In this document: positions 8,406 to 58,811 of the stretch, one piece after another
How positions within the stretch are numbered: position 1 is the first letter of the stretch
Layout: each line of letters opens with the position of its first letter
Assembly (NCBI GenBank): GCA_030247525.1
Contig: JAOTSC010000003.1
Span: forward strand, 1-58,811
Length of the DNA stretch: 58,811 nt
Source: a bacterium
GTDB lineage: Bacteria > Electryoneota > JAOADG01
Direction: 5' to 3'
Position numbers and translations under genes: made by a program
Notes under the pieces: model-generated
The model's database searches: none
The model's input: the letters and a program-made list of their open reading frames with translations, nothing else
What the model was told of the DNA's origin: nothing

Positions 8406-8660
8406 GGTGAAAGGTGTAAGGTGTAAGGTGAAGGGGATCGAAAAAAATGGTGAAAGGTGTAGGGTGTAAGGTGTAAGGTGTAGGTTGTAAGGGTAGAGAA
8501 AGGCGTCCCCGCCTGTATAGGGTAGCGACAGGTCTCCCGACCTGTTAAAAACGAAAGGGCGACCCAGAGGGTCTGCCCCTACTGAAACAAGGGCGGCTGC
8601 CAGCCGCCCCTACGATACAATAAGTTTACCTGCGGTGAGCCCTCCGGGGCTGCCACGTCG
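8406..8660. repeat. Intergenic repeat cluster: GGTG(T/A)A(A/G) heptad arrays plus at least 4 REP-like hairpins
   Basis: Heptad arrays at 8406-8435 and 8448-8493. Hairpins gtagcgacaggtctcccgacctgt (8522-8545), gggcgacccagagggtctgcccctac (8557-8582), gggcggctgccagccgcccctac (8591-8613) and tacctgcggtgagcc... (8626-). Confidence 0.9.
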
Positions 8661-40961: not shown

Positions 40962-40964
40962 ATC

Positions 40965-41363
40965 GTGGGTGATGGGGGATGGGAAAAGATGGTGAAAGGT
41001 GTAGGGTGTAAGGTGTTGGGGGATGGGCAGGGGCGGCACAGAAAACGTCCGCTCGTAATGGGTAGGGACTGAGGGTTCCAGTCCGGTTAAAAACAAAAGG
41101 GCGAACACGAGGTTCGCCCTTACTCACGGGCGGCTGCTTGCCGCCCCTACTGGAGGTTAGTCAACCCACCTTGCGGCTCGCCGCAGGTAATCCTGCCTGA
41201 CAGGGGTACGGACAGGTCTCCAGACCTGTTAAATAAAAAGGCGACCCAAAGGGTCTTGCCCCAACCAAACGGGCTTGGGGAAGCCCGTAACCACCTCCCC
41301 AACACCCCAACACTGATAACCCATTACTCATCCCCCATTGCCCATTACCCATTACCCAACCCT
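40965..41363. repeat. Composite 400-nt intergenic palindrome-like element: G-rich heptad arm, 7 nested REP hairpins, complementary C-rich heptad arm
   Basis: G-arm 40965-41033 (gtgggtgatgggggatggg...ggtgaaaggtgtagggtgtaaggtg...). Hairpins at 41099, 41128, 41152, 41206, 41240 and 41271. C-arm 41291-41363 (cctccccaacaccccaac...cccattacccattacccaaccc). Confidence 0.9.
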
Positions 41364-41432
41364 CAATTCTTGTGTTCGGAGAGAATTTGTAGTAAATAGT
41401 CTGGATATCTTTGTACATTCCGCAAGAAGAGT

Positions 41433-42269
41433 ATGCTGAAATTTGGCGGTCCCCCTGCCGATTCCGAGGGGAAACATTATCAATTGTTATGGGTGCCCCC
41501 CGATCACCGCGAGCCAGTTTCGCTCACGATGTCGGTAATCGGTTGGCGCTGGATTCGCATCGCTATCGTAATGTTGGCAGTGATGCTCATTGGGATGGTA
41601 ATCACTTGGGGTGTTTTTCTCCGGCAAGCACTTTCCTACGACCGGTTAGTACAGGAAAACAAATCGCTCAAAGTGAGTGTCGTGAAACTGGACGAAATGC
41701 GGATGCAATTGGAATCGCTCCAGATTCTCGACGATCAGGTGCGGCGAGCATTAGGAAGCCGCCCCGGATTGACAGCGGAAGACCGCGCCTTGTTGCGGGA
41801 GCGTTACCGTTCCAAGCAGTTTTCCAGCAGTTCCCGTTCCGGACAAGAATTATCCGATGTAACGTTTTTACCGACATTGATGCCGACGGTTGGGTTGGTT
41901 TCACGACATTTTACCAATTCACCGTTTGCGGGCAATGAGGGACATCGTGGAATCGACATTGCCTCGGCGAGTGGTACACCAATTATTGCCGCGGCAAGCG
42001 GTACCGTGCTTTTCAGCGGGTGGACACAACAGTATGGGAATACGTTACTTGTGGGACACCCCTCCGGGTACACCACGATGTATGGTCATGCCCAAATGTT
42101 TTTTTGGAATGCGGGCGATATCGTTCGACAAGGCGAACCGATTGGATTGGTCGGTTCGACTGGAAAATCGACCGGGCCGCATTTACATTTCGAGGTTTGG
42201 AAAGAAAATTCTGTGATCGATCCGATGACGATGATCTCGGAGAATCGGTTTACCGCAAACAAGCGGTAG
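41433..42269 (+). CDS. M23/LytM-family peptidoglycan endopeptidase with N-terminal TM and coiled coil
   Basis: Motifs HRGIDIA, TTMYGHAQ and GPHLHFEV. Confidence 0.85.
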   Translation: MLKFGGPPADSEGKHYQLLWVPPDHREPVSLTMSVIGWRWIRIAIVMLAVMLIGMVITWGVFLRQALSYDRLVQENKSLKVSVVKLDEMRMQLESLQILDDQVRRALGSRPGLTAEDRALLRERYRSKQFSSSSRSGQELSDVTFLPTLMPTVGLVSRHFTNSPFAGNEGHRGIDIASASGTPIIAAASGTVLFSGWTQQYGNTLLVGHPSGYTTMYGHAQMFFWNAGDIVRQGEPIGLVGSTGKSTGPHLHFEVWKENSVIDPMTMISENRFTANKR

Positions 42270-42277
42270 GAGGAGTT

Positions 42278-42742
42278 ATGTTGACACGCGGCGGAACGAC
42301 ATCAACCGGAACAGAAATCGCAACGGTGATTGGCGCTGAAACATTAATCGAAGGGAACATCACAGTTCCTCATTCGATGCGGCTCGATGGTCGCGTCCAC
42401 GGACAAGTGAATGTTACCGAGACTTTGACGGTTGGTCCGAACGGCACGGTCGAGGGAAATGTTCAAGTAAAATCGGTAATTGTCGGTGGTAAAGTCATCG
42501 GCTCGGTGAGTGCATCGGATAAAATTACCCTGAACAGTACCGCGGCGATGAATGGCGATTTAGTGTGTGCTAAACTGGTAATTGAAGAAGGGGCGGTATT
42601 CGAGGGGATGTCGCGGATGGGTACCGGAAAGCTGCCGCTCATGATGCCGCAAGCGGAACCGCGGAGTGATGCAACGAAACCGAATACCAGCGAAGGTGCG
42701 CAACAACCGGAAGTACCGCGCTGGGCGGATCGCAAAAGATAG
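42278..42742 (+). CDS. Bactofilin (polymer-forming cytoskeletal protein)
   Basis: AGGAGG RBS 5 nt upstream of ATG 42278. Beta-helical repeat pattern (IEGNITVPHSMRLDGRVHGQVNVTETLTVGPNGTVEGNVQVKSVIVGGKVIGSV). Disordered C-terminal tail. Confidence 0.85.
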   Translation: MLTRGGTTSTGTEIATVIGAETLIEGNITVPHSMRLDGRVHGQVNVTETLTVGPNGTVEGNVQVKSVIVGGKVIGSVSASDKITLNSTAAMNGDLVCAKLVIEEGAVFEGMSRMGTGKLPLMMPQAEPRSDATKPNTSEGAQQPEVPRWADRKR

Positions 42743-42745
42743 GCA

Positions 42746-42817
42746 GGAATTCGGAACTCGGGGTTCGGGGTTCAAATTTACTCACCGATTCCCGAATTCC
42801 GATATCCGATCCCCGAG
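42746..42817. repeat. G-tract heptad arm plus complementary C-tract arm, ending exactly at the atpZ start codon
   Basis: ggaattcggaactcggggttcggggttc (42746-42773) and gattcccgaattccgatatccgatccccgag (42787-42817). The ATG of the next gene is at 42818. Confidence 0.85.
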
Positions 42818-43072
42818 ATGTTAGACCGCGATAGCGTAAAGGCATGGGCAGCCATCGGTGAATACTCATCGCTGGGGATTCAGATGGTGGGTACTATCGC
42901 GGTGTGTGCCGGACTGGGGTGGTATATGGATCGCGCTTGGAACACAAAACCGTGGGGGTTGCTTCTCGGAGCACTGTTCGGAGCGACGGGGGGAATGATC
43001 GCATTCATCCGGGCGGTACTCAAAGCCAATCGCGACACCGAACGAAGTGACCTCGAAAAGAATCATAAGTAA
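42818..43072 (+). CDS. atpZ: AtpZ/AtpI-family small membrane protein (putative F0F1-ATPase-associated subunit)
   Basis: 84 aa, two TM helices (LGIQMVGTIAVCAGLGWYMD...GLLLGALFGATGGMIAF). First gene of the atp cluster. Confidence 0.65.
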   Translation: MLDRDSVKAWAAIGEYSSLGIQMVGTIAVCAGLGWYMDRAWNTKPWGLLLGALFGATGGMIAFIRAVLKANRDTERSDLEKNHK

Positions 43073-43148
43073 GCGTATTTTTATCGATGGATTTGTTGTT
43101 GCGGGAATTGCACTTAGGCAATCGACCTCTTACATTAGCGACTTTGGA

Positions 43149-43517
43149 ATGCCGGTGAAATCACTATTCCGATGGTTTTTTTTGATCGCACTCGCGCTCT
43201 ATTTCACATACTATCTGCCACCGGCAGGCATGGTAGGCGCGAAATATTTCTTAGCCGTGATTACTGCGATTGGTACCGGTTTGGCGGGATTCATCCAGCT
43301 CCGTGTTGCAAAAAATAGCAACGGCCAACCGATGAAAGCGGTCGCCATCGGCGGCGGGATTCGCATCTTATTTGTGATTGCATTAGTGGTGGTCGCATTG
43401 ACGAAGTTTCCCGAGAATGCCCGACTTGGCAATGTAATTGCGATTATGATGATGTACTTTGCGATACAGTTGGCGGAATTGCCGACGATTGTTAGAATTT
43501 TGAGTCAAGAACATTAA
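43149..43517 (+). CDS. ATP synthase protein I-like membrane protein
   Basis: About 122 aa and four hydrophobic segments, located between atpZ and atpB. Start chosen at ATG 43149, because the longer ORF overlaps atpZ. Confidence 0.5.
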   Translation: MPVKSLFRWFFLIALALYFTYYLPPAGMVGAKYFLAVITAIGTGLAGFIQLRVAKNSNGQPMKAVAIGGGIRILFVIALVVVALTKFPENARLGNVIAIMMMYFAIQLAELPTIVRILSQEH

Positions 43518-43521
43518 ATGT

Positions 43522-43621
43522 GGTAGCCGCAGACTTCAGTCTGCGAATGGAAATAAAACGAGTGTAAACGCGGTCTAAAGCCCGCGGCTACCCATAAGCC
43601 ACTACCCATCGGTGGCTACCC
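43522..43621. repeat. REP cluster (two inverted GGTAGCCGC-family hairpins plus a GCCAC/GTGGC hairpin)
   Basis: ggtagccgcagacttcagtctgcg (43522-43545), cgcggtctaaagcccgcggctaccc (43569-43593) and gccactacccatcggtggctaccc (43598-43621). Confidence 0.9.
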
Positions 43622-43653
43622 ATTGAACTAAACAACCGAATGGAAATGTGCGA

Positions 43654-44601
43654 ATGAGTGAACCGACCCACACGATAACCCAAACGGTGAGCGATACGCT
43701 CCACGCGGCGCAATCCGTTGCCGGCCATGCCGCCGAACACGGCGCGGAGCATGGCGCTCACGACTACTCGTTCGCCCACGATTCGCTTTGGACCGGGCAG
43801 GATTTGACCTACAATCTACTCGATCACCATCTCGAATTCCTTCCCGATTGGGGAACTTTTACCCTCACGAAGCACGGTTTTATCCTCGCATTAGCGGCGT
43901 TCGTCTTGGTCATTTTTGCGACGCTCGCCGGCAAGTCCGCGAAGAAACGGATGGGGAAAGCCCCGACCGGGTTAGGTAATTTCCTCGAAGTGTTCGTGAA
44001 GTTCATTCGCGACGATGTGGTCTACCCTGCAATGGGTGAGAAGTTGGGCAAACACCTCCTCAATTACTTCCTGACTGCCTTCTTTTTCATTCTGTTCGGT
44101 AATCTTGCCGGACTCATCCCCGGATCGAAATCGCCGACGATGAATATCGCGGTAACGATGGGGATGGCGGTGATGACGTTTATCCTGATGATTTATAGCG
44201 GGGTGCGCGTCCACGGGTTGTGGGGCTTTTTGAAGCATTTCGCCCCGCCCGGTATTCCGTGGCCCGTCTACTTTATTCTGACCCCGATAGAAATTGTCGG
44301 ACTCTTCGTAAAACCGTTCGCATTAACGATTCGTCTCTTTGCGAATATGGTGGCGGGAAAAGCGCTGGTGCTTTCATTCATCGGACTGATTTTTATGTTG
44401 GGTAGCGCGCTGGGCGCCGGGGCGGCATTCGGTATTGGACTGCTCCCATTTGCGGGCGGCGTCGGTATCATGTTGCTGGAAATCTTTGTCGCATTTTTGC
44501 AGGCGTTCATCTTTACCATGCTGTCGGCGCTGTTCATTGGACAACTGGCAACGGCACACGACGAACACGACCACGAACATGGTCACGAGCATGCGCATTA
44601 A
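43654..44601 (+). CDS. atpB: F0 ATP synthase subunit a, with His-rich N- and C-terminal extensions
   Basis: Conserved Arg in LTIRLFANMVAG and a multi-TM core. N-terminus AGHAAEHGAEHGAHD; C-terminus HDEHDHEHGHEHAH. Confidence 0.9.
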   Translation: MSEPTHTITQTVSDTLHAAQSVAGHAAEHGAEHGAHDYSFAHDSLWTGQDLTYNLLDHHLEFLPDWGTFTLTKHGFILALAAFVLVIFATLAGKSAKKRMGKAPTGLGNFLEVFVKFIRDDVVYPAMGEKLGKHLLNYFLTAFFFILFGNLAGLIPGSKSPTMNIAVTMGMAVMTFILMIYSGVRVHGLWGFLKHFAPPGIPWPVYFILTPIEIVGLFVKPFALTIRLFANMVAGKALVLSFIGLIFMLGSALGAGAAFGIGLLPFAGGVGIMLLEIFVAFLQAFIFTMLSALFIGQLATAHDEHDHEHGHEHAH

Positions 44602-44788
44602 TTGATTTTTTCGCGCGATAAATATGAGGCACAGCCTCGACGCGCACGCCGGATATGGAAAATCCGGTATCGGTTAGGGCATATTTTTTACTAATGCCCA
44701 ACGCAGACAGGATTGTCCGCGCCACCGAACCCTTGCCTAAAGCGTGATGCGGGCAAGTGATTGGAAAGGAACGGTACGTCTTTCAACT

Positions 44789-44877
44789 GTACGTCGGACA
44801 TTCTTGTCCGACGGGCGTGAAGGAAAAGAGGCGTGTCGGATAACGTTAACATCGACCGACAGGAATGTCGGTCGTGC
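44789..44877. repeat. Two TTGGACA/CGGACA-family REP hairpins in the 300-nt atpB-atpE spacer
   Basis: gtacgtcggacattcttgtccgacggg (44789-44815) and cgaccgacaggaatgtcggtcgtgc (44853-44877). Confidence 0.9.
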
Positions 44878-44902
44878 AGAATACAAATAAGGAAGCACTT
44901 TC

Positions 44903-45130
44903 ATGGGAAATGAAGCATACGCACTGTTGTCCGCCGGTATCGGCGCAGGTCTTGTGGTTATCGGCGCCGGACTCGGCATCGGCCGCCTCGCTGGCGAAGC
45001 GATGCAAGGAATCGCCCGGCAACCGGAAGCGACCGCGAAAATTCAAACGGCTATGATTATCGCCGCCGCCCTTATCGAAGGCGTCGCGTTGTTCTGCGCC
45101 GTTATTTGCTTACTGTTGTCGTTCAAATAA
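44903..45130 (+). CDS. atpE: F0 ATP synthase subunit c
   Basis: 75-aa hairpin protein with the GIARQPE loop and ion-binding Glu in ALIEGVALF. Confidence 0.95.
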   Translation: MGNEAYALLSAGIGAGLVVIGAGLGIGRLAGEAMQGIARQPEATAKIQTAMIIAAALIEGVALFCAVICLLLSFK

Positions 45131-45134
45131 AAAC

Positions 45135-45200
45135 GGGAACAGGGTACAGGGGTTAGGGAACAGGTAAAGCACTGTTCCCCGTTCCCCGTTCCCCATTCCC
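45135..45200. repeat. GGGAACA-type heptad inverted repeat (long hairpin, or G4-capable G-arm) between atpE and atpF
   Basis: gggaacagggtacaggggttagggaacag / ctgttccccgttccccgttccccattccc. The core stem gggaacag (45156-45163) pairs with ctgttccc (45172-45179). The G-arm fits G3N4G3N4G4N3G3. Confidence 0.9.
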
Positions 45201-45210
45201 TGAGGGAACC

Positions 45211-45705
45211 ATGAATCCAATTGAATTGGTAACGCCCAACGTCGGAATGTGGTTTTGGACGACGCTGCTATTCTTAGCGGTGCTCATCATCCTGCGGAAA
45301 ACCGCGTGGGGTCCGATTGTCAAGGCGCTCGAAGAACGCGAGAAGACGATTGCCGACGATTTGAAGCGCGCCGAATCTGCCCGTGTCGATGCCGAAGGGG
45401 CGCGGGAAAGTCTGCTCAAGGAACAGGCGAAAATGCTTGCCGAGCAGAATGACCGGGTCGCCCAGATGATGAAGAATGCGGAACATCGCGCCGCCGACAT
45501 CATCGAACAGGCAAAAGTCGAAGCGCAGAAGCAGCGGGAAACCGCTACCGCCGAAATCGAACGCGAGAAGCAAAAAGCCATCGCCTCGATTCGCAGCGAA
45601 GTCGTAACGGTAGCGCTCAATGCCGCGCAAGCGGTGATCGGCAGAGAGTTGAAGCCGGAAGACCATCAGCGCTTGATTGAACAATCGATCAATCATTTGA
45701 ACTAA
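45211..45705 (+). CDS. atpF: F0 ATP synthase subunit b
   Basis: N-terminal TM helix followed by a long charged coiled coil. Position between atpE and atpH. Confidence 0.85.
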   Translation: MNPIELVTPNVGMWFWTTLLFLAVLIILRKTAWGPIVKALEEREKTIADDLKRAESARVDAEGARESLLKEQAKMLAEQNDRVAQMMKNAEHRAADIIEQAKVEAQKQRETATAEIEREKQKAIASIRSEVVTVALNAAQAVIGRELKPEDHQRLIEQSINHLN

Positions 45706-45779
45706 GGGTGTATGGTGAAAGGTGAAGGGTGAAAGGGATCTTCATGCCACCTTACACCCTACACCTTATACCTTTCACC
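45706..45779. repeat. GGTGAAAGG heptad inverted repeat (imperfect long hairpin) between atpF and atpH
   Basis: The G-arm (45706-45737) and C-arm (45747-45779) are complementary; for example ggtgaaagg (45714-45722) pairs with cctttcacc (45771-45779). Confidence 0.9.
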
Positions 45780-45790
45780 GCAAGGAAGAA

Positions 45791-46327
45791 ATGAGCTTAT
45801 TAGTATCACGCTACGCGGAGCCGTTGTACCTTGCCGCGAAAGAGACCGGCGAATTGGAAACGGTGACTGCCGACATGGCGGCGCTGGGTATGCTGTTGGT
45901 TTCCGGCGAATCGGGAAAAGTATTCGCGGAATACTTGTTATCGCCCCAAGTGTCGCGCAAGGAAAAGCTCGATACGTTGCTTGCGGTATTCGCCAGCGGC
46001 AGTAAAATCACTCGGAACTTTTTTCAGGTGGTAATTGAACGCGGGCGCGAAGAACTCCTGCTCGAATTGCCGGATGAGTTTCTTAAGCGAATGAAAAAAG
46101 AAGCGGGGATCGTCTCGGCAAACTTGATTAGTTCGATTGCACTCACCGAAAAACAAGTAAAGGCGATGGCGGAGAAAATCGGGAAATCGATTCACAAACA
46201 AGTCGAATTGACGTCGGAGACCGATGCTTCGTTGTTGGGCGGTTCGATTCTGGAACTGGAAGGGAAACGGTACGACGCCTCGCTCAAACGTCAATTAGAC
46301 GACCTGAAACAGGCGTTGTTGGCGTAG
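45791..46327 (+). CDS. atpH: F1 ATP synthase subunit delta (OSCP)
   Basis: MSLLVSRYAEPLYLAA... is an OSCP-type N-terminus, with AGGAAG upstream of ATG 45791. The longer tracked ORF (from 45722) merely reads through the repeat. Confidence 0.8.
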   Translation: MSLLVSRYAEPLYLAAKETGELETVTADMAALGMLLVSGESGKVFAEYLLSPQVSRKEKLDTLLAVFASGSKITRNFFQVVIERGREELLLELPDEFLKRMKKEAGIVSANLISSIALTEKQVKAMAEKIGKSIHKQVELTSETDASLLGGSILELEGKRYDASLKRQLDDLKQALLA

Positions 46328-46340
46328 GGGCGGGTGTAAA

Positions 46341-46405
46341 CCGTAGGACAGACACTCCTGTCTGTCCACAATGATTCCGATGGACAAGAATGTCCATCGT
46401 ACGGG
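46341..46405. repeat. REP doublet (GACAGACA family plus GGACAAGAATG family)
   Basis: ccgtaggacagacactcctgtctgtccac (46341-46369) and ccgatggacaagaatgtccatcgtacggg (46377-46405). Confidence 0.9.
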
Positions 46406-46420
46406 ACATCGAAGAGAAAA

Positions 46421-46741
46421 ATGAATCCACGGATTTTGCAAATCGCTGGGGAATTGAAGAGGCGGCTGGAACCGCTGTACGGCGAGCGGTTGCAAAAGGT
46501 CGTGGTCTTCGGTTCCTATGTGCGTGGCGAAGAGACTGACGAGTCGGATTTAGACGTCGCGATTGTGTTGGATCCAAAATATGACGATTTAACTGAGTGG
46601 AATTTAGCGGGATCGCTCTTTGTCGAAATCGATTTAGCGTTTGATGTGGTCGTCGATACGCATATAATTTCGCTCGAAGAATACAATGACCGGGATTATG
46701 CGATACTTCGCGCTATCCATAGCGAAGGGGTGACGGTGTGA
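46421..46741 (+). CDS. Minimal nucleotidyltransferase (MNT) antitoxin of a HEPN-MNT toxin-antitoxin pair
   Basis: GSYVRGEETDESDLDVAIV is the GSxxRGx(n)DxD NTase motif. Overlaps the downstream HEPN gene by 4 nt. Confidence 0.85.
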   Translation: MNPRILQIAGELKRRLEPLYGERLQKVVVFGSYVRGEETDESDLDVAIVLDPKYDDLTEWNLAGSLFVEIDLAFDVVVDTHIISLEEYNDRDYAILRAIHSEGVTV

Positions 46742-47118
46742 ACGAACTTGTAGCGTTGCACTTGAAGCGTGCCGAGCGATTTCTGGTCGAAGCGAATTTT
46801 ACTCTGACGAACGAGTTCTTCGATGCGGCGATCAACCGTTCCTACTATGCGATGTTTCATGCGGTAACCGCAGTACTGAAAACGGAAGATGTGGCGCGCA
46901 GTTCTCATGCCGGTGTGATTGCCGCATTTAATCAGTTCTTTGTCAAACCGGGTAAATTCACCGAGGTAGAAGGGCGTTGGCTCAAACACGGCTTTGAAAC
47001 GCGCAATAAGAACGATTATTGGCCGGCGCCGGAGAACAGTGAAGCGGAAGCGCTGCAATTATTTGAAGAAGCGAAGGCGTTTGTAGCGAAGTGTCGGGAG
47101 TATTGCGAAGGAGCGTAG
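46738..47118 (+). CDS. HEPN-domain toxin of the HEPN-MNT pair
   Basis: Helical protein with AINRSYYAMFHAVTAVL and ETRNKNDY motifs typical of PF05168-type HEPN domains. Confidence 0.85.
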   Translation: MNELVALHLKRAERFLVEANFTLTNEFFDAAINRSYYAMFHAVTAVLKTEDVARSSHAGVIAAFNQFFVKPGKFTEVEGRWLKHGFETRNKNDYWPAPENSEAEALQLFEEAKAFVAKCREYCEGA

Positions 47119-47244
47119 GGACGCAAATTATCGCATCCGAGACAATATCCGGGTTCGATGAACCCAACGCATTTCTAGCGTTGGTTCACAAACACCGATG
47201 ATTTTTCAATTCGTGTTTGTAATTGAACCCCTACAACGTTGCCC

Positions 47245-47324
47245 CGACATTCTTGTCGCGGAGTTGGAGGTTAGGCAATCTTGCCTGACTGAGGAAGAGC
47301 GACGGACAAGAATGCCCATCGTAC
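47245..47324. repeat. REP cluster; includes the left copy of the 26-nt direct repeat bracketing the TM-protein gene
   Basis: cgacattcttgtcg (47245-47258), ttggaggttaggcaatcttgcctgac (47264-47289) and cgacggacaagaatgcccatcgtac (47300-47324). Confidence 0.9.
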
Positions 47325-47424
47325 AGTAGTGGGACAGAAGGAAGCGGGAAAGTGGGAACGTAGCGACAAAGCTCCTGCTTTGTCATCGTCTTTGGAATTG
47401 TATTAACAACTGGAGGTGATACCA

Positions 47425-47820
47425 ATGTATTCTTCAGAACCAGATGACTGTTCTAAAGATGATCAACATCAGGATTTGATCGAGATAACTCCAGAACTAG
47501 TTAGGAAGGTGAGGATATTCAAATATTCTTTTTGGACTCTTAGAACGATTTTTCTATCATTTGCTATACTAATCATGTATTCGGGGTTTATCTTTGCGGG
47601 TTTTGTTTTTAAAATACCATTTATAGATAAAATCAAGGATGATACTTTGTTTATGTTTTTTTATTTTATTGCATCGGTAGTATTTGGTTTTGTCATGTTG
47701 AATCTTGTTTGTAAGGTTGGTGTTGTTGATAGATTATTTAATAAGATCGACAATAAATATGAATACTATAAAGAGCTGTTGTGCGTTTATAATTATGATA
47801 GAAAATCTCATAAGTGTTAG
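47425..47820 (+). CDS. Small AT-rich membrane protein, unknown function (two predicted TM helices)
   Basis: GGAGG lies 8 nt upstream of ATG 47425. Hydrophobic segments TIFLSFAILIMYSGFIFAGFVF and LFMFFYFIASVVFGFVMLNLV. No family recognised. Confidence 0.5.
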   Translation: MYSSEPDDCSKDDQHQDLIEITPELVRKVRIFKYSFWTLRTIFLSFAILIMYSGFIFAGFVFKIPFIDKIKDDTLFMFFYFIASVVFGFVMLNLVCKVGVVDRLFNKIDNKYEYYKELLCVYNYDRKSHKC

Positions 47821-47896
47821 TAAAAATCTAATTGTTTGATTTTGTGTCATTGTCCTTGAAATCATACATCGTGCAAACGAGGGTGTTTGTACTTAC

Positions 47897-47950
47897 GGGC
47901 GACCCCGAGGGTCTGCCCCTACAATTGGAGGTTAGGCAATCTTGCCTGAC
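47897..47950. repeat. REP doublet; includes the right copy of the 26-nt direct repeat
   Basis: gggcgaccccgagggtctgcccctac (47897-47922). ttggaggttaggcaatcttgcctgac (47925-47950) is identical to 47264-47289. Confidence 0.9.
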
Positions 47951-48037
47951 CAAATCAAATTTCACATCTCTCCTCACAGTGTGTGAAGTTTGAGTTTAGT
48001 CTCTGAAACAGGTTCAATCAACTTTGATGGTGGAGAG

Positions 48038-48757
48038 ATGTTAAGCGAAGAAGCAATAAAAAATGAAATAGATTCTTTGCTAAAAATGGGCGACGAACTA
48101 TTTTTAAATTTGGAAGGAGTAATGTTTCGTAGACATTATCCCCTATGGTATGGAAAATCATTGCCCTACATACATGAGTATAATAGTCTCTGCTATAATG
48201 ATTTTATAATGTGCTTTAAAAACGAAACAAGAAAAGAAATTACAGCTAGTACTTATACATTGTCGGATTATATTATCGGTGTATACCAAGTCAGCTCTGG
48301 ATATCAAATAAATGTACAATATGCTGTGCGTGGTCTCCTAGATATTCAAATTGGACTATTAAATGCGTGTATTAGTACGATTGATGGGTCATTAAACAAA
48401 CTAAAAAACTTTGTTCGAGCTGATTTGTTTTACAGTGAATTAGAATCGGCAGAATATTTGTGTCAAAATAAATTCTATCGAGCAGCAGGAAACATAGCTG
48501 GTATTGTAATTGAGAGGCACTTAATTCACATATGTAATGATTTAGAGATCGTGTTACCTAATAAACCAACGTTAGGTGTTGTAATTGATCGTTTATATGA
48601 TGCCGACCGAATAGATGATGTTGAAAAGTTGAGATTGAAGCACCTTAATGAAATCAGAGTAAAATGTGATCACGTAAAAGAGACCGAACCAAATGAAGCT
48701 GAAGCAAAGAATATTTTATTCGGTGCACGAGAAACTCTTAGTAAAAACTATGTATAG
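48038..48757 (+). CDS. AT-rich hypothetical protein with a C-terminal HEPN-like (DUF4145-like) Rx4H motif
   Basis: The C-terminal pattern TLGVVIDRLYDADRIDDVEKLRLKHLNEIRVKCDH resembles DUF4145/HEPN (L..I..L....i......L..iR....H). R is at 48656-48658 and H at 48671-48673. The start is uncertain (TTG 47990 or ATG 48038). Confidence 0.5.
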   Translation: MLSEEAIKNEIDSLLKMGDELFLNLEGVMFRRHYPLWYGKSLPYIHEYNSLCYNDFIMCFKNETRKEITASTYTLSDYIIGVYQVSSGYQINVQYAVRGLLDIQIGLLNACISTIDGSLNKLKNFVRADLFYSELESAEYLCQNKFYRAAGNIAGIVIERHLIHICNDLEIVLPNKPTLGVVIDRLYDADRIDDVEKLRLKHLNEIRVKCDHVKETEPNEAEAKNILFGARETLSKNYV

Positions 48758-48810
48758 TGATTTATCAAATTGTGTAAAGTTGAAAACGCAACCAATCAGG
48801 AACCAACTGC

Positions 48811-50319
<1,509 letters not shown>

Positions 50320-50322
50320 ATA

Positions 50323-50387
50323 GGGGGCAGGGAACAGGGGACAGTAAACAGTTTTGCACCGTTCCCTGTTCCCCGTATCCCGTTCCC
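50323..50387. repeat. GGGAACAGGGG heptad inverted repeat after atpA (hairpin plus T-run; attenuator/terminator-like)
   Basis: gggaacaggg (50330-50339) pairs with ccctgttccc (50364-50373). The C-arm is followed by tttt (50388-50391). Confidence 0.85.
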
Positions 50388-50405
50388 TTTTCTGATTGGT
50401 AAAAT

Positions 50406-51269
50406 ATGCCATCTCTCAAACAGACGAAACAGCGCATCGTCAGCGTGAAGTCGACGCAACAGATCACCAAAGCGATGAAGATGGTGGCGGCGGCGAAATT
50501 ACGGCGGGCGCAAAATAATATGCTGGCGGCGCGTCCGTACTCGCACCGGTTGCGCAACGTCATCGCCGAAATGGCGGGACGCACCGACTATAGCCACCCG
50601 TTGTTGGTGGAACGAGCGCCGGAGCAAGTCGGGTTTGTCGTCGTTGCCTCCGACCGCGGGCTCGCCGGCAGTTTCAATACGAATGTGATGAAACGCGCCG
50701 TTGCCGCGTACAACGAACATGAAGGGGCTGACCGCTTCCTGATTACCGTAGGCAGGAAAGCGACCGACTTCTTTACGAAACGCGGCTACAACGTCATTTC
50801 CAAGCATCTCGACATTTTTCCCGACCCGACGCTGGAAAAGTCGCGCCGTATCAGCGATAACATCATCGCGAAATATTACAATGAGATGATTGGACTTGAC
50901 CGCGTCTACTTGGTTTACAACGAATTCAAAAATGTCGTCCAACAACAAATCATTGTCGAACAGCTCCTCCCGATTATTCCGGCGGAAGAGGAGAAGGGCG
51001 GATTTCATCAGGATTTCCAATTTGAACCGTCCCCGGAAGCGATTCTCGATGTAGTGTTGCCGCAGTACATCAATGTCGCTATCTGGCACGTGCTGCTCGA
51101 ATCGTTTGCTGCGGAAATGGCAGCGCGTATGACGGCGATGGAGAATGCGACAAAGGCGGCGTCCGATATGATTTCCGCATTAACGTTGCAATACAACAAA
51201 GCGCGGCAGAGTGCGATTACGAAAGAACTACTCGAAATTGTCGCCGGCGCGGAAGCGCTGAAAGGGTAG
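50406..51269 (+). CDS. atpG: F1 ATP synthase subunit gamma
   Basis: N-terminus MPSLKQTKQRIVSVKSTQQITKAMKMVAAAKLRRAQ and C-terminus ITKELLEIVAGAEAL are canonical AtpG termini. Confidence 0.95.
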   Translation: MPSLKQTKQRIVSVKSTQQITKAMKMVAAAKLRRAQNNMLAARPYSHRLRNVIAEMAGRTDYSHPLLVERAPEQVGFVVVASDRGLAGSFNTNVMKRAVAAYNEHEGADRFLITVGRKATDFFTKRGYNVISKHLDIFPDPTLEKSRRISDNIIAKYYNEMIGLDRVYLVYNEFKNVVQQQIIVEQLLPIIPAEEEKGGFHQDFQFEPSPEAILDVVLPQYINVAIWHVLLESFAAEMAARMTAMENATKAASDMISALTLQYNKARQSAITKELLEIVAGAEALKG

Positions 51270-51370
51270 GGACTCGGGGTTCGGAATTCGGGAATCGGTG
51301 TTGGGTGTTGGGGAAAGATGGTGAAGGGTGTAAGGTGAAAGGTGTAGGGGAAGACAATGTGGGTCGCCCG
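51269..51370. repeat. Heptad arrays plus a truncated REP; left bracket of the HicAB-DinB module
   Basis: gggactcggggttcggaattcgggaatcgg (51269-51298). ggtgaaaggtgtagggg-N9-tgggtcgcccg (51334-51370) matches 52412-52448 in the same orientation. Confidence 0.85.
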
Positions 51371-51428
51371 AAGTAGGGTGAAAGTATTGGGAAAGCTCGC
51401 AAAGATATTTCAGCAAATACTTTCATGA

Positions 51429-51653
51429 CGTTCGGATACGAACATCCGTTTCGACGATCTTCGTGCCGTTCTTTTACAATTAGAATTTTCGGAACGGATT
51501 CGCGGAAGTCATCATATTTTCGTTCGTGACGACTTCGAAGAGATAATAAATATTCAACCGACGGAAAACGGAAAAGCAAAACCGTATCAAGTGAAACAGA
51601 CGAGAAATCTGATTGTAAAATACCGGTTGAAAGGATTTGACGATGAAGTATGA
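51429..51653 (+). pseudogene. HicA-like toxin gene lacking a canonical in-frame start codon
   Basis: The open frame reads ...NIRFDDLRAVLLQLEFSERIRGSHHIFVRDD...GKAKPYQVKQTRNLIVKYRL, with a GSHH core. A TGA lies at 51426-51428 just upstream, and there is no ATG/GTG/TTG before the conserved core. ATG 51425 lies in another frame. Confidence 0.5.
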
Positions 51654-51849
51654 AGTGATTTTGTACTGGAGCGAAGACGATCAGGCATTTGTAGCCGAAG
51701 TGCCAGAATTACCGGGCTGTGCCGCCGATGGGAGAACCTATCGGGAAGCGTTTGAGAATATCGAAATCGTCGCGCAGGAATGGATGGAAACCGCTCGCGA
51801 ATTGGGTAGAAATGTTCCGGAACCGAAAGGTCGTTTGATTTTTGCATAG
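51643..51849 (+). CDS. HicB-like antitoxin (UPF0150 fold)
   Basis: The MKYEVILYWSEDDQAFVAEVPELPGCAADGRTYREA pattern is typical of the HicB N-terminal domain. Overlaps the hicA-like stop. Confidence 0.7.
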   Translation: MKYEVILYWSEDDQAFVAEVPELPGCAADGRTYREAFENIEIVAQEWMETARELGRNVPEPKGRLIFA

Positions 51850-51855
51850 GATTGG

Positions 51856-52356
51856 ATGGTATCGATGAGTGTTAGTGAGAATATGAAGTGGGTGTATGGC
51901 GTTCACGATTATGCGGTGAATGTCAACCTCGCCGGTATTTCCGATGCGGAGTCGCGAAGGCGGATGGAGCCGGGCGGAAATTGCGTAAATTGGATTATGG
52001 GACACATGCTCTGTTCCCGCGTCCATATTCTCGGTTTTCTCGGTTGCGACTGGACAAAGACGAATGCCGTACTCGAGCCGTATCAGCGGGGAACCAGCGG
52101 CGCTGATTTCGATTCTTTTCTTACTCTGGATGAATTGACAAAACTGTGGCAGGAGTCGTCGGAGCTTTTGAAAACGAACATCGATGCGACGACCGATGAA
52201 CAGTGGTTGGAACCGGCTTCGCTGCCCGGTACGGGATTCGATAAACCGGATACGCGGGAGCGCCGGGTATTCTTTCTATCGTTCCATGAAGGATACCATT
52301 TAGGACAAATCGGATTATTACGTCGGTTACTTGGTAAAGAAGGCGCGATAAAATAG
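51856..52356 (+). CDS. DinB-family (DinB_2) metal-dependent four-helix-bundle protein
   Basis: His triad context (WIMGHMLCSRVH ... FHEGYHLGQIGLL), and a length of about 165 aa. Confidence 0.75.
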   Translation: MVSMSVSENMKWVYGVHDYAVNVNLAGISDAESRRRMEPGGNCVNWIMGHMLCSRVHILGFLGCDWTKTNAVLEPYQRGTSGADFDSFLTLDELTKLWQESSELLKTNIDATTDEQWLEPASLPGTGFDKPDTRERRVFFLSFHEGYHLGQIGLLRRLLGKEGAIK

Positions 52357-52539
52357 GTGAAAGGTGTAGGGTGAAAGGTGTAGGGTGAAAGGTGTAGGGT
52401 GAAAGGTGTAGGGTGAAAGGTGTAGGGGCTGACCCTCTGGGTCGCCCGGTGATGGGTGATAGGTTTTGGGGATTGGATAGCGACAGGTCTTCAGACCTGT
52501 AAAAAAGAAAATAGCAATTCTGGAGAATTGCCAGTACCC
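52356..52539. repeat. 14-nt tandem array (ggtgaaaggtgtag x5) plus three REP hairpins. Contains the right bracket of the HicAB-DinB module and the left bracket of the nuclease-HicAB module
   Basis: Tandem array 52356-52425. gtaggggctgaccctctgggtcgccc (52422-52447), tagcgacaggtcttcagacctgt (52478-52500) and gcaattctggagaattgccagtaccc (52514-52539). Confidence 0.9.
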
Positions 52540-52708
52540 AATCCGAACAATGGCGCTATTGCGGGAAGCTTTTGTCGATAGCGATCTGCCGTTTCGGGTC
52601 GATGAGGTGGAAAAGAGAGAGTTGAACGCAAGTGAACAAACTCTGATAACCTTGTAGTAGTCGAGATAGGCTCGACAATCTAATTAATTAAAAACAAGGA
52701 GTAAAATC

Positions 52709-53549
52709 ATGATTATCGAACAAGCGTTTTTTGGATTACCGGAATTGTGTGCAAATAAGAGTAGTTTGAGCGAAGCATTTATCAGATCGTGTTTCAGTCA
52801 TAGTATTTTACAAGAATTAATTGCACGTGGAGTTCCTTATCCAATAACAAAAATTCAACACGAATATGTTTACGAAGAATTACAAAAAGGAAATAAATTC
52901 CATGCAGATTTGTGTTTGACGTTGAATGATGAGAAGTATGTAAATAGGATGTCTATATGGGGACAAAAAAAACAACAACATAATTGAAATGAAGCTTATT
53001 AGAAATTATGACAAAAAAGATGGTTCAGAAAACAAGCAAGGCGTAATAAACAATGGGTACTTGCTCGATTCATTATTGCGTCTATCTATCTTACCGAAAA
53101 TTGAAATTGCACAAAAAAACAGCGGTGAGTTGAAAAATAATTCAGTTGGAAGATATTTACTACATGTGTATTTAGGAGAACCTGATCAATTCTTAGCCTA
53201 TAAGGATCAAAAAGGTGATGAAAGATTATGGGTGAAGAATCTTATCGAAGGTGAACAGAACGTAGAACTAGAACCTGCACGTGAAAAGTCCGGACATCTT
53301 CTGGCGATATATTCTAAGTACGGAAATGTTGTTCTGTTGAAAATGTCGATTAGAAGTATCAAAATTAAATCATTTATGAAGAAAGGTATAACTTTTGTCT
53401 TAAGTAAGATAAATTCTTTTCAGCTGAAAACAAATGAAGGAATGTATAATGAAAATGAGTTTGGTTCTTTCGATCAATCGCAATACAGTGTTTTGAAAAA
53501 CGCAAGAAACCAGAGCTTGTTTAATGTTAAAAGTAATCAAAACACATGA
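52709..53549 (+). pseudogene. AT-rich PD-(D/E)xK-like putative nuclease split into two ORFs at an A8 homopolymer
   Basis: AAGGAG RBS before ATG 52709. ORF1 carries FHADLCLTL (candidate catalytic D). The ORF2 frame is open upstream of its ATG and reads IIEMKLI (candidate ExK). The frames differ by +1, and removing one A from the A8 run (52965-52972) fuses them into a protein of about 279 aa. Confidence 0.45.
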
Positions 53550-53743
53550 AAGTCCGTGAGATAATAAAACTAATAGAAAAAGACGGTTGGTACTTGGTGA
53601 CGACCAAAGGAAGTCATCGGCAATTCAAGCACCCTGAAAAACCGGGACGTGTGACAGTTCCGGGACACGTTGGAGAGGATATGCCGGAAGGCATTCGGAT
53701 TTCTATCTTGAATCAAGCCGGATTGCGGAAGAGAGGAAAGTAA
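53546..53743 (+). CDS. hicA: HicA toxin (YcfA-type mRNA interferase)
   Basis: MKVREIIKLIEKDGWYLVTTKGSHRQFKHPEKPGRVTVPGH is canonical HicA. ATGA overlap with the upstream ORF. Confidence 0.9.
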   Translation: MKVREIIKLIEKDGWYLVTTKGSHRQFKHPEKPGRVTVPGHVGEDMPEGIRISILNQAGLRKRGK

Positions 53744-53744
53744 T

Positions 53745-54020
53745 ATGCGGTACGAGTATGCTATCTTCATCGAACGGTCGAAAAGCCGGTATTGGGCTTC
53801 CGTACCCGATCTTCCGGGTTGTGTTTCCTGTGGAAAATCGTTAGAAGAATTGCAAAAAAATATCCAAGAAGCCATCGAATTTCATTTGGAAGGGATGGTC
53901 GAAGATGGATTACCAATCCCGAAACCGGTGACAAAAGCAAGTATGGTGGAAGTGGAGCGTCCGACCCGGCGAAAAGCAATACGTCGGATTACCAGGACGA
54001 CGGTACGCGGTCATGAGTAG
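53745..54020 (+). CDS. hicB: HicB antitoxin
   Basis: YAIFIERSKSRYWASVPDLPGCVSCGKSLEELQKNIQEAIEFHLEG is the HicB/UPF0150 domain. Starts 2 nt after the hicA stop. Confidence 0.85.
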   Translation: MRYEYAIFIERSKSRYWASVPDLPGCVSCGKSLEELQKNIQEAIEFHLEGMVEDGLPIPKPVTKASMVEVERPTRRKAIRRITRTTVRGHE

Positions 54021-54183
54021 AGGCGTATTGCAATACGCCCATCGTGTGACGGGCTTGGAAGCCCGTAACCACCCAAACGGGACGGGTAGCGACAGGTCTC
54101 CAGACCTGTAAAAAGAAAATGTGCAATTCGGGAGAATTGCCGGTACCCAAGTGAATTTGAGGGCGTATGCCATACGCCCCTAC
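54017..54183. repeat. REP cluster of five hairpins; contains the right bracket of the nuclease-HicAB module
   Basis: Hairpins at 54017-54040, 54051-54074, 54086-54109 (gtagcgacaggtctccagacctgt), 54123-54148 (gcaattcgggagaattgccggtaccc) and 54161-54183. Confidence 0.9.
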
Positions 54184-54294
54184 ACCGCGACAGGAATACG
54201 AACCCGGACAGATGATTCATCGGAGTTCGTGATTCTTCGCTGCTTCACATGCGAAGAATTGTCGCGGCCACAAAAGAATGTTTTGGAACAATAG

Positions 54295-55809
<1,515 letters not shown>

Positions 55810-55824
55810 TCGAAACACGGTGGT

Positions 55825-56229
55825 ATGATGGCGATCACATTTGAAATCCTAACGCCTCGCGGAGTTGTGTTTCAATCGGATGTAAAATCGGTTCGGTTAC
55901 CGGGTGTTGCCGGCGAGTTTGGGGTGCTGCCCGGTCACGTACCCTTTATCACCGCACTACAGGCGGGTGTCATCGAACTTGATACCACCGAGAGTAAGCA
56001 CGAAAAGATCGCGGTATCGGCGGGCTTTGTCGAAGTCCTTCCCGAGAAGGTTGTGGTCTTGGCAGAGACAGCCGAAACTGCGGCAAACATTGATGTTACG
56101 CGGGCGGAATCCGCCCGCAAACGCGCCGAGGAAGGGTTGCGGGCCGCTACCGACCGGGTCGAAGCGGAACAGTACCAAGCAGCGCTATCTCGAGCGAAAT
56201 CACGTATTAAGGCAAAAACAAATTCATAA
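55825..56229 (+). CDS. atpC: F1 ATP synthase subunit epsilon
   Basis: 134 aa, with a beta-sandwich N-terminus (LPGVAGEFGVLPGHVPFITAL) and a helical C-terminus. Follows atpD. Confidence 0.9.
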   Translation: MMAITFEILTPRGVVFQSDVKSVRLPGVAGEFGVLPGHVPFITALQAGVIELDTTESKHEKIAVSAGFVEVLPEKVVVLAETAETAANIDVTRAESARKRAEEGLRAATDRVEAEQYQAALSRAKSRIKAKTNS

Positions 56230-56419
56230 CGTTCGTATCATATATTTCAAAATTCAGTGGCGTCTCGATTGGAAATCCTATCGAGATTGCTTTATGTTAA
56301 GAACATCCTGAACTTGACACCGAATGCCGTTTCCGGCATATTTCGTATACTGCCCTTTTTTTATATTCGGGCGGGTTAACCCGAAGGGGTCGATAACGAT
56401 CGTTGGTAGGGGTGACAGA

Positions 56420-58588
56420 ATGATTTTAGCGGCAAAGCGCTTAGCGCCTCGACTCATCGCAATGGCTGCGATTGTGGTTGTGATGGCGCAAGCGGGCGCA
56501 GCAAGCGGATTGCGGGCGACGTGGATCGACCGGACATTCGCGCAGGCAAAATCGATCCACGTCCAAAAAGAGATGGTTCGGCTTACCGCCGAACTGCAAT
56601 TGCGCGAAGCGTTTCTCCAAACGATGATCGACGGCAGCCGATCAGAAATCCAAGCGCGAAAACGCAGTGGGGGGGATGTTCCCAACTTCACCTGGCCTAC
56701 CAGCGAAGTCGCCGACTTCTGGGTATTTCGCGATACCCTAAATTTGCTCAAAAGCTTTGAAGATTATAAAGCGACTCGTGTTTCCGATTATGACTCCCGC
56801 CTTGAAGCTGTTCGCAAACTGAAGCGCGACTTGATCGCAACAGCGAGTCCGCTCGACATCGTCCGGATGCGGATGAGGGACTGGCAGTCGTTTGAGCGTT
56901 CTTATGGAGCTGACGTCGATAAAGCGAGCGATCCCGAATTGGCGCTAATGCTTTCCGATGAGTACGGCAGAAATTATCCGACAGCCCTTGCCGATAGCTT
57001 CTGGTTCTACCGTGCCGAGATCGCCCTCGCTGGCGGTTATTACGACGAAGCGATTCTCGCCTACAATCGGGTTGTGATACAGGAAGCTTCGCGTTATCGG
57101 CCGGAAGTGTTTAACCGGTTAGCTTTTATTTATGCAGAGTTAGGCGATTTGGCTGGATTGGAAAGCAATTGGCTGCAATGGATTAATGCCGGTCGTCCGT
57201 TTGCCAAAGAGGGTCGGGTTCAGTTCCATACCGGACGTGCCCGTTACATTGCCGGTGGTTACTCGACTGCTATCAGCGCATTAAATGAAGTACCCTCCTC
57301 CAGTGATTATTATGAACGTGCGCGTTTACTGCTGGGTTCCTCCTACGGTTTGAACCAACAATTCGACAGTGCAATGACCGCCCTCTCCCCCATACTCAGC
57401 AAGAAACTGGATAAGCGGTTACAAATCAATGCCGATTTGAAAAGATACGCCACTTTGAAATATGCCCAACTGCAGAATTTCAGCGGTCGCAGTCGCGAGG
57501 CGTTGCAAACGATTGAAGGTTTGGACACTCGTTCTGAATATGGCGATCAAGTGTTGTTTACTCGGGCTTGGATTTACCGGTCGATGTCGAAGTACAGCGA
57601 TATGTCAATGGAACTCGACACGTTAGTTCGGCGTGCGGCTTGGAGCCCGTTTGTCCCGTTAGCGAATGCCTGGCTTGCCGAAGTAACGGAAATTCGTAGT
57701 GGTCAAGTGGAAGCGGTACCGATGTTCGAGCATATTCTTGGAATGCTGGAGCAACGGCAACAGATTTCCGACTACACCGAAGAACGATACCAGTTATACC
57801 ATCTATTGAACTCGTTGAATACGTTGGAAACAGAATTACTACTGGAAAACGACATCGGGGTGTTTGCGAAGTATATCGACCAACGTCGACGCTTGTTGCT
57901 CATGATCGAACAGAACAAAAACGGTGCGTCGTTGGCGGCGAATCCAGCGTTAAAGGAATTGTATCAGGAAGAAATTGCGACCTCACAACTGGCGCAAAAT
58001 CTTGTGAACATGTCGCGCTCAGTCGACCGTCAAAACAAACCTTCCCAGTTGAAAAAGTATTTTGAGTTAACCGAGAAGCAGGAAAAGCTATCCGCTCGGT
58101 TAGGCGACTTGATGATGGTTGCACAAGGGTTAACGCCTGCCATTCAACGGGAACAGGACGTTCTTGCCTTTAACCGCCGGTTGAAGGAGTTGGGAAAGTC
58201 GTCGCGTGATTTGCTTTCGCAATCCCGTCCCGATGCGCCGTTCCAAACCGTAGATCGGGCCGCTTTTACAACGATGAAACTCGATAAGCTTGGAACCAGG
58301 ATATTAACCGCCCAATTGGATAAAATATCCACCGACATCGACCGCTACGCCAACTTTGCGATGACCCGCTATGCGTTAGGCGGTTTCGATTTCGATTTAC
58401 TCGACCGGAAACGTGACCGCAGCGATGAGCTGACATTCTACATCAAACGTCTCGAAACGCTGATGGAAGAAAAAGCCGAGCAAGCCGAAGAGGCTGCTGC
58501 CAGTGCGGCATTGTTAGAAATGATGAAGACGGCGACGCCCGATAGTTCGAGTGCTCAGCCGGCAGTAGTACCACCGGAACAGAAGTAA
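56420..58588 (+). CDS. Large secreted TPR/coiled-coil protein, unknown function
   Basis: The internal ATG 56420 gives a signal peptide (MILAAKRLAPRLIAMAAIVVVMAQAGAASG). TPR-like A/Y-rich helical repeats in the middle and coiled-coil-like segments elsewhere. Confidence 0.6.
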   Translation: MILAAKRLAPRLIAMAAIVVVMAQAGAASGLRATWIDRTFAQAKSIHVQKEMVRLTAELQLREAFLQTMIDGSRSEIQARKRSGGDVPNFTWPTSEVADFWVFRDTLNLLKSFEDYKATRVSDYDSRLEAVRKLKRDLIATASPLDIVRMRMRDWQSFERSYGADVDKASDPELALMLSDEYGRNYPTALADSFWFYRAEIALAGGYYDEAILAYNRVVIQEASRYRPEVFNRLAFIYAELGDLAGLESNWLQWINAGRPFAKEGRVQFHTGRARYIAGGYSTAISALNEVPSSSDYYERARLLLGSSYGLNQQFDSAMTALSPILSKKLDKRLQINADLKRYATLKYAQLQNFSGRSREALQTIEGLDTRSEYGDQVLFTRAWIYRSMSKYSDMSMELDTLVRRAAWSPFVPLANAWLAEVTEIRSGQVEAVPMFEHILGMLEQRQQISDYTEERYQLYHLLNSLNTLETELLLENDIGVFAKYIDQRRRLLLMIEQNKNGASLAANPALKELYQEEIATSQLAQNLVNMSRSVDRQNKPSQLKKYFELTEKQEKLSARLGDLMMVAQGLTPAIQREQDVLAFNRRLKELGKSSRDLLSQSRPDAPFQTVDRAAFTTMKLDKLGTRILTAQLDKISTDIDRYANFAMTRYALGGFDFDLLDRKRDRSDELTFYIKRLETLMEEKAEQAEEAAASAALLEMMKTATPDSSSAQPAVVPPEQK

Positions 58589-58624
58589 GTGATTCCGCTT
58601 AGCCAGAAGAAGGAGCCGATTCTT

Positions 58625-58811
58625 ATGCTTCGATTGCGAAGAACGCGAATCGCGATAACCATTGCGATAGCGGCCTTGCTCGCCAACTTCGCGGCACTGG
58701 CGCAACCAGCGTGGCAGAAACAGTTGTCGGAAGGCGATTCCAGCATCATTAAAAACTGGGAATCCGACCGCGCTGCGCTTGACGTTCAGGTGGCGGAATT
58801 AATGCGAATAG
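58625..58811 (+). CDS. 5' fragment of a secreted protein (runs off the window)
   Basis: ATG 58625 gives MLRLRRTRIAITIAIAALLANFAALAQP, a signal peptide. The frame is open to the window end. Confidence 0.4.
   Translation, partial: MLRLRRTRIAITIAIAALLANFAALAQPAWQKQLSEGDSSIIKNWESDRAALDVQVAELMRI

Follow-up and report, generated by a model that had tools for sequence, protein, structure and literature searches.

A frameshifted nuclease-like gene beside a HicAB toxin-antitoxin pair in a bacterial ATP synthase operon, and the restriction-associated family to which it belongs

Introduction

Genes nested within defence operons are mostly defence genes themselves (bioRxiv 10.1101/2024.01.29.577857; PMC11411939), and 'guilt-by-embedding' candidates have been described by Payne et al. 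(bioRxiv 10.1101/2024.01.29.577857). Genes embedded in Type I restriction-modification (RM) operons include PrrC and TgvAB (PMC11411939). Here we describe a gene, named X and covered by two open reading frames (ORF1 and ORF2), on a 58,811-nt stretch of bacterial DNA (contig JAOTSC010000003.1 of assembly GCA_030247525.1; GTDB lineage Electryoneota, JAOADG01), referred to throughout as the window. Relatives of X likewise lie within hsd operons, where start and stop codons overlap. They differ from the genes above in lying between two orthologous HsdM paralogues rather than between hsdM, hsdS and hsdR, and the family is missing from PADLOC v2.0.0, including its PDC candidates; the copy in the window differs further in lying outside any RM locus.

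In Haemophilus, Neisseria and Helicobacter, homopolymer tracts are a well-established basis of phase variation in RM genes. X shares with such phasevarion genes a frameshift in a mononucleotide run and an RM-associated family, but its A8 tract is short, can be accounted for by base composition and is not shared by homologues. The reading that we prefer, and regard as slightly more probable than its negation, is that X is a horizontally acquired orphan defence gene that has undergone a real, recent inactivation by slippage and adjoins an intact hicAB pair. The locus in the window is itself minor, a broken acquired defence-type gene beside a standard toxin-antitoxin (TA) pair. The X family is the more useful result, with an invariant E/D/ExK/R signature, a confident predicted fold and a recurrent HsdM1-X-HsdM2-HsdS-HsdR operon, and 'guilt-by-embedding' marks it as a concrete, testable candidate new component of restriction or defence.

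Organization of gene X and the site of the frameshift

The features of X are as follows.

52696–52701, forward strand: AAGGAG, a strong Shine-Dalgarno sequence 7 nt 5′ of the X start, read from sequence
52709–52987, forward strand: ORF1, the N-terminal part of X as now read (92 aa), carrying E22 and D67
52944–53549, forward strand: C-terminal portion of X, shifted +1 from the ORF1 frame and open from 52944; ORF2 is annotated from the ATG at 52989
52965–52972, forward strand: A8 run, the +1 frameshift site; an A7 reading, CAA AAA AAC (Q K N), brings X back into family register

ORF1 and ORF2 are one gene split by a +1 frameshift in the A8 tract. ORF1 ends at a premature TGA (52985–52987), 13 nt past the tract, and ORF2 (52989–53549; 186 aa) lies in the other frame, which is open from 52944 and reads ...KKNNNIIEMKLI. 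The 44-nt stretch 52944–52987 is the one place where the two frames are both open; it holds the sole A8 run in the window, and a frame switch landing exactly in this tract is not due to chance. One A fewer gives a 279-aa protein reading ...MSIWGQKNNNIIEMKLI... (also given as ...MSIWGQKNNNIIEMK...), with the gapless family register G85-x-[R/K]87-x-x-N90-x-x-E93-x-K95. The conserved S-x-[YW]-G comes from ORF1, and N90, E93 and K95 come from the other frame, which places the shift between the G85 and N90 codons, within the A tract.

Both parts belong to the same family. ORF1 matches the X family hidden Markov model (HMM) with an E value of 5e-24; homologues align from its residue 1, where the family consensus begins MIIEQAF, as at the X start. 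The C-terminal part matches the HMM with an E value of 4.5e-34 and encodes E93 (5′ of the ATG at 52989), K95, R124 and GRYLLHVY. An exhaustive HMMER scan of 1.84 billion representative proteins with fused X as the query recovered 108 remote homologues at 26–40% identity, scattered over phyla (~100 full-length proteins) and mostly 265–340 aa long. About 105 of them align straight across the junction, from query residue 1, and none of these is split. A word-indexed protein search with fused X matched only ORF2 of the window itself, and a 12-sequence alignment used as the query found a single relative among 2.9 million viral contigs.

Residues E22, D67, E93, K95 and R124 are invariant in an 86-sequence family alignment, a result that also holds in subsets of 19 and 12 sequences. 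X retains all five invariant residues together with 14 near-invariant ones, and carries no second lesion. Several elements of the original prediction are borne out: that the two ORFs form one gene (in homologues it is a single protein without interruption, and the model of the fusion is confident), that the frames meet at the A8 run where loss of one A gives a single protein of about 279 aa (the 279-aa fusion is in family register), and the choice of a candidate catalytic Asp (HAD) in ORF1 and of an E-x-K (IIEMK) in the upstream extension of the ORF2 frame, both being invariant in the family.

Gene callers gave two proteins here (P0001 and P0002), and the ATG of ORF2 comes 1 nt after the premature stop (TGAaATG), an arrangement that could let ribosomes re-initiate on ORF2. 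Two real genes encoding a naturally split protein are nevertheless hardly conceivable, and we rejected this explanation. ORF2 starts at M94, leaving the invariant E93 5′ of its ATG and encoded by neither present product; the ATG at 52989 is not preceded by a Shine-Dalgarno sequence; the break falls between adjacent strands of one sheet in the compact model of the fused protein; and the homologues are unsplit.

Predicted fold of the fused protein

An AlphaFold2 model of the 279-aa fusion, built with the 86-sequence alignment, is one compact protein (predicted local distance difference test, pLDDT, 91.1; predicted template modelling score, pTM, 0.91); a single-sequence model was useless (pLDDT 38). 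Its elements run in the order helix 22–39, strand 49–56, strand 64–71, strand 89–97, helix 107–127 and strand 146–154, so that, comparing element order alone, the core is alpha-beta-beta-beta-alpha-beta with the D on strand 2 and the ExK on strand 3. In the model E22 is on helix 22–39, D67 on strand 64–71, E93 and K95 on strand 89–97, and R124 on helix 107–127.

This arrangement resembles the PD-(D/E)xK superfamily in its core order, in the acidic residue on helix 1 (E22), in D67 on strand 2 and in E93 and K95 on strand 3, and the family also adjoins DNA methyltransferases and other restriction genes. It differs in having an inserted helix (75–84) that separates the D and ExK strands, in a beta-rich C-terminal domain of ~120 residues without a match, and in the lack of a significant match to any named member in Pfam, NCBIfam, the PDB or by Foldseek. 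A Foldseek search of the fused model against the PDB returned only noise, PDB sequence and profile searches gave no match, and neither did hhalign of the family profile against one Mrr_cat and one HsdR N-terminal sequence. Against viral models Foldseek gave only sub-threshold matches (best E value 1.1e-3; TM ~0.2), nine of the top 17 of which are named exonuclease VIII, exonuclease, UL24 or 'PD-(D/E)XK nuclease'; these names are a hint, and only that, of a PD-(D/E)xK fold. No member of the family has a consistent match in Pfam, NCBIfam, PADLOC v2.0.0 or PHROGs, and the family is absent from every domain and defence database searched.

By motif and topology X is most likely a PD-(D/E)xK-type nuclease, and nuclease activity is predicted. 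The earlier assignment to this superfamily thus stands as to the D...E-x-K motif and the order of secondary structure elements, and the structure prediction of the fusion agrees with it in core order; what did not follow is significant similarity, by profile or by Foldseek, to any known family or structure.

Genomic contexts of the X family

The genomic contexts of 12 X homologues were compared. Five have the arrangement HsdM1-X-HsdM2(-HsdS-HsdR), often with start/stop overlaps of 4–8 nt:

HsdM1-X-HsdM2(-HsdS-HsdR) operons: L001, 3179–10972; L004, 3466–10981; L007, 3414–10063; L008, 3517–7486; L092, 112–8993

The upstream HsdM1 proteins are 56–80% identical among themselves and the downstream HsdM2 proteins 56–82%, with only 44–54% identity between the two sets. 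HsdM1 and HsdM2 are therefore two separate orthologous groups, and HsdM1-X-HsdM2 is a conserved operon rather than a random insertion. It is found in unrelated genomes (Gimesia benthica, CP043930, around 5.00 Mb, and several metagenome-assembled genomes, MAGs), and points to a Type I RM variant in which a nuclease-like gene is embedded alongside two methyltransferase paralogues; no description of it came up in a limited literature search.

Four further contexts adjoin other methyltransferase, restriction or defence genes. Outside the HsdM1-X-HsdM2 arrangement, copies of X lie behind a Type ISP-like methyltransferase and a PLD/SNF2 helicase, behind an HsdR-Mrr-MT-A70 string, beside an XhoI/Eco57I-type system, within a TIR/Fic island, or on elements with ArdC or a serine recombinase. 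Nesting among RM genes is thus a property of the family and not of the copy in the window, which is flanked by dinB, hicAB and atp genes and around which a search for an hsdM relic gave only chance-level matches.

Two contexts without RM genes (L003 and L094) have a protein of ~100 aa directly 5′ of X (L003, 4696–5004; L094, 3696–3986; 60% identity), which may be a second kind of partner. This gene is absent from the window.

The adjoining hicAB module and its linkage to X

X is followed by two genes.

53546–53743, forward strand: hicA, 65 aa, with a G-S-H motif; Pfam PF07927 HicA_toxin, E value 2.3e-21, 76 bits (cutoff 27)
53745–54020, forward strand: hicB, 91 aa; Pfam PF15919 HicB_lk_antitox, E value 1e-15, 58.5 bits (cutoff 27); also PF21748

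With toxin and antitoxin domains in adjacent, co-oriented genes, hicA-hicB is an intact, ordinary type II TA module. As in other HicAB modules, hicA (RNase toxin fold, G-S-H) is 5′ of hicB; the spacer is 1 nt, not the 2 nt given earlier. HicB consists of a HicB/UPF0150 N-terminal fold (residues 5–64) and a 27-residue basic tail without a Pfam domain, and it differs from described modules in that, at 91 aa, it has no C-terminal helix-turn-helix (HTH) or ribbon-helix-helix (RHH) DNA-binding domain detectable with Pfam. A second difference is that the start of hicA is overlapped by the stop of an unrelated gene, which is not seen in the related loci examined.

That overlap is the ATGA at 53546–53549. 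It is present as originally described and would allow translational coupling; hicA has no obvious Shine-Dalgarno sequence of its own, whereas hicB has one (GAGAGGAAAG), and hicA translation is possibly coupled to X through the ATGA. The same observations would suit a true three-component system, with the X nuclease, the HicA RNase and the HicB antitoxin acting as one defence or addiction unit in which hicA translation depends on X. All three genes lie between the two closest-matching copies of a repeat, and L001, L007 and L092 each show a 4-nt overlap between the X stop and the gene that follows, which would make X habitually co-translated with a partner. Such a system is very unlikely in view of the comparative data. 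Neither HicA nor HicB is present in any of the 12 X contexts. Conversely, among 80 metagenomic loci with HicA relatives at 60–75% identity, hicB accompanies hicA in the same arrangement in 73, and X is present in none, including the 45 with at least 900 nt upstream that are informative on this point. There is also a sharp compositional step at the gene boundary: GC content is 32% in X, 46–49% in hicAB and ~54% in host genes, and GC at third codon positions (GC3) steps abruptly at the X/hicA boundary, from 25–30% in X to 46–48% in hicA and hicB (63–67% in atpA, atpG and atpD). Finally, X is broken and hicAB is intact. The juxtaposition of X and hicAB is unique to this contig among the loci compared, and the proposal that the three genes are wired as one unit did not hold.

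A more elaborate scheme would make X the nuclease effector of an undescribed defence module, elsewhere an obligate partner of the two-HsdM Type I variant and here rewired to HicAB, with the slippage-prone A tract as a switch that gates the nuclease and tunes HicA versus HicB translation via TGAaATG and ATGA. It would place a switchable nuclease-plus-TA unit inside the ATP synthase operon, and we consider it highly improbable.

Nature of the frameshift

The A8 tract alone is unremarkable for the composition of X, which is 39% A; an A8 arises in 21% of shuffles of the gene. Elsewhere in the window 14 other homopolymer runs of at least 7 nt (two 8-mers and about a dozen 7-mers) lie inside intact ORFs without disturbing the frame, and the 58.8-kb contig yielded no further convincing frameshift, from which we take homopolymer error to be low in this assembly. 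One candidate was rejected: a T7 at 42099–42105, where one T more would fuse the frames of M23-peptidase-like (41433–42269) and bactofilin-like (42020–42742) ORFs; these overlap and both look complete, and the case was judged a coincidence.

These counts argue against a sequencing or assembly error, by which the true tract would be A7 and an intact 279-aa X would be made, translationally coupled to hicA. In its favour, homopolymers are classic sites of indel errors, every conserved family residue is present with no second lesion, and one contig alone carries the X locus, no second copy having been found in any sequence collection searched. With the other 7-mers and 8-mers in frame and no further frameshift in 58.8 kb, an error seems quite unlikely.

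A reversible switch or partial rescue, in which A7/A8 toggling, or slippage by RNA polymerase or by the ribosome in the +1 direction, gives some full-length X and a dangerous nuclease is held mostly off, is doubtful, though slightly more probable than an error. X belongs to an RM-associated family and is otherwise undecayed, homopolymer-based phase variation of RM genes is established in other bacteria, and the family-register protein is exactly what would result from an A7 transcript or from tRNA-Lys slipping by +1. The tract itself speaks against it. Efficient contingency tracts would be expected to exceed an A8, which is no longer than composition predicts, arising by chance in 21% of composition-matched shuffles. 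The CAAAAAAAC 9-mer (Q-K-N) of the A7 reading also occurs in frame at 53111–53119 in X, and is therefore a by-product of codon usage. The tract is not conserved, since homologues encode G-[WFY]-R-x-x-N at its position with no Lys/Asn run, and none of the ~105 junction-spanning homologues is split.

Overall the evidence on the A8 tract leans towards a real inactivating slippage mutation, and we infer that the frameshift is not an error. Under the preferred reading, the X copy would have been gained horizontally, with 32% GC against ~54% in neighbouring core genes, and would stand here without a methyltransferase partner. Replication slippage would have lengthened an ordinary A7 (CAA AAA AAC) to A8 and so switched X off: ribosomes would stop at 52985–52987, E93 would be in no product, and D67 and K95 would be on separate polypeptides, leaving no active enzyme. 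The lesion would be recent, because all five invariant and 14 near-invariant residues are kept without a second lesion, and the loss of function may have been tolerated or selected, the methyltransferase partners being missing. The hicA-hicB pair would abut X by happenstance, perhaps translationally coupled via the ATGA, and the cassette would form part of a 3-kb accumulation of TA and defence genes in the atpG-atpD gap, delimited by copies of hairpins like repetitive extragenic palindromic (REP) elements.

Several observations weigh against this account. With a single assembly of the locus, the A8 call may be a base-calling or assembly error or an A7/A8 mixture; the full retention of conserved residues fits an intact or switchable gene equally well; the C-terminus of X ending on the hicA ATG, together with the TGAaATG, is neater than random juxtaposition; and the nuclease fold and activity are predicted, with no significant match in the PDB, Pfam, NCBIfam, PADLOC or PHROGs.

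Repeats flanking X and hicAB

X, hicA and hicB lie between two direct repeats.

52475–52541, forward strand: left two-hairpin repeat, 67 nt, ACAGGTC-loop-GACCTGT, an A-rich spacer and GCAATTC-loop-GAATTGC; fold energy z-score −3.1
54084–54150, forward strand: right two-hairpin repeat, 67 nt; fold energy z-score −5.7

The repeats (family D6) are 87% identical, are not due to chance, and each folds into a pair of separate hairpins, both short and perfect. Further copies of the first hairpin are at 8528 and 41212, behind unrelated genes (four copies in 58.8 kb versus zero expected). In alignment the element proves modular, its second and third hairpins being exchangeable; the flanking copies are each other's closest relatives, and their second hairpin is nowhere else in the window. 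The bracketing of the cassette by direct repeats, put earlier at about 63 nt, is thus real at 67 nt. Its implied specificity to the cassette is not, as the first hairpin recurs at unrelated intergenic sites.

Because the hairpins are modular and many other hairpin families are present in the window, the repeats are elements like REP or bacterial interspersed mosaic elements (BIMEs), and not cassette-specific recombination sites. Within the 58.8-kb window they share with REP/BIME elements short perfect palindromic units, modularity, several intergenic copies and tolerated read-through inside an operon. They differ in that the family has no match in 185,579 reference genomes, where the second-hairpin pattern was searched, and in that the flanking pair shares a private second hairpin. 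An integron attC reading was rejected, as the repeats form two short perfect hairpins and no single long imperfect palindrome, and their first hairpin recurs at 8528 and 41212. Rfam gave nothing at or near a family threshold over 40000–58811, which includes the cassette and both repeats.

Further REP-like hairpin families in the window are D3–D5, D7 and D9. Tandem arrays of the 14-nt unit GGTGAAAGGTGTAG (two related heptamers) and other heptamer-type arrays are situated at gene and cassette boundaries (52357–52440, 5383–5614, 8407–8491, 40992–41033, 45701–45776 and 51300–51355).

The surrounding ATP synthase operon

Between atpG and atpD lies a gap of 3,035 nt (51270–54303) that holds the X-hicAB cassette; in the reference genomes examined that have both genes, this gap typically spans tens to a few hundred nt. 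The operon (43648–56229; atpB, E, F, H, A, G, D and C, all on the forward strand) is broken twice by accessory DNA, the second insertion being a 2.5-kb atpH-atpA gap (46328–48810). An essential operon thus tolerates two multi-kilobase TA/defence insertions, each delimited by REP-like hairpins. With atpG (50406–51266) as the query, no AtpG among 185,579 species representatives exceeded 53% identity, the nearest matches being from uncultured 'Deferribacteres' and Calditrichaceae MAGs; the lineage of the contig therefore has no close sequenced representative.

One small ORF lies between the left repeat and X.

52550–52657, forward strand: 35-codon ORF (MALLREAFVDSDLPFRVDEV...), no Pfam match

It may be a gene relic. 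As a weak lead, it may resemble the 'SDLPyrVDlvD' C-terminus of HI0073-type nucleotidyltransferase antitoxins.

A second HicAB-like pair is located in the atpG-atpD gap at 51429–51849. Its HicA-like frame (51429–51638; Pfam HicA, E value 1.5e-5, just under threshold) begins right after a TGA overlapping an out-of-frame ATG at 51425 and has no ATG, GTG or TTG near its 5′ end, the sole candidate start being a late GTG; this toxin gene has probably decayed. The HicB-like gene (51637–51849) is intact and is followed by a DinB_2 gene (51856–52356). The atpH-atpA insertion repeats the pattern of the X locus, a TA pair with a low-GC foreign gene. It contains an MNT (46421–46741) and HEPN (46738–47118) TA pair, followed by two ORFs of 30–33% GC without a Pfam match, at 47416–47820 (probably a membrane protein) and 47990–48757.

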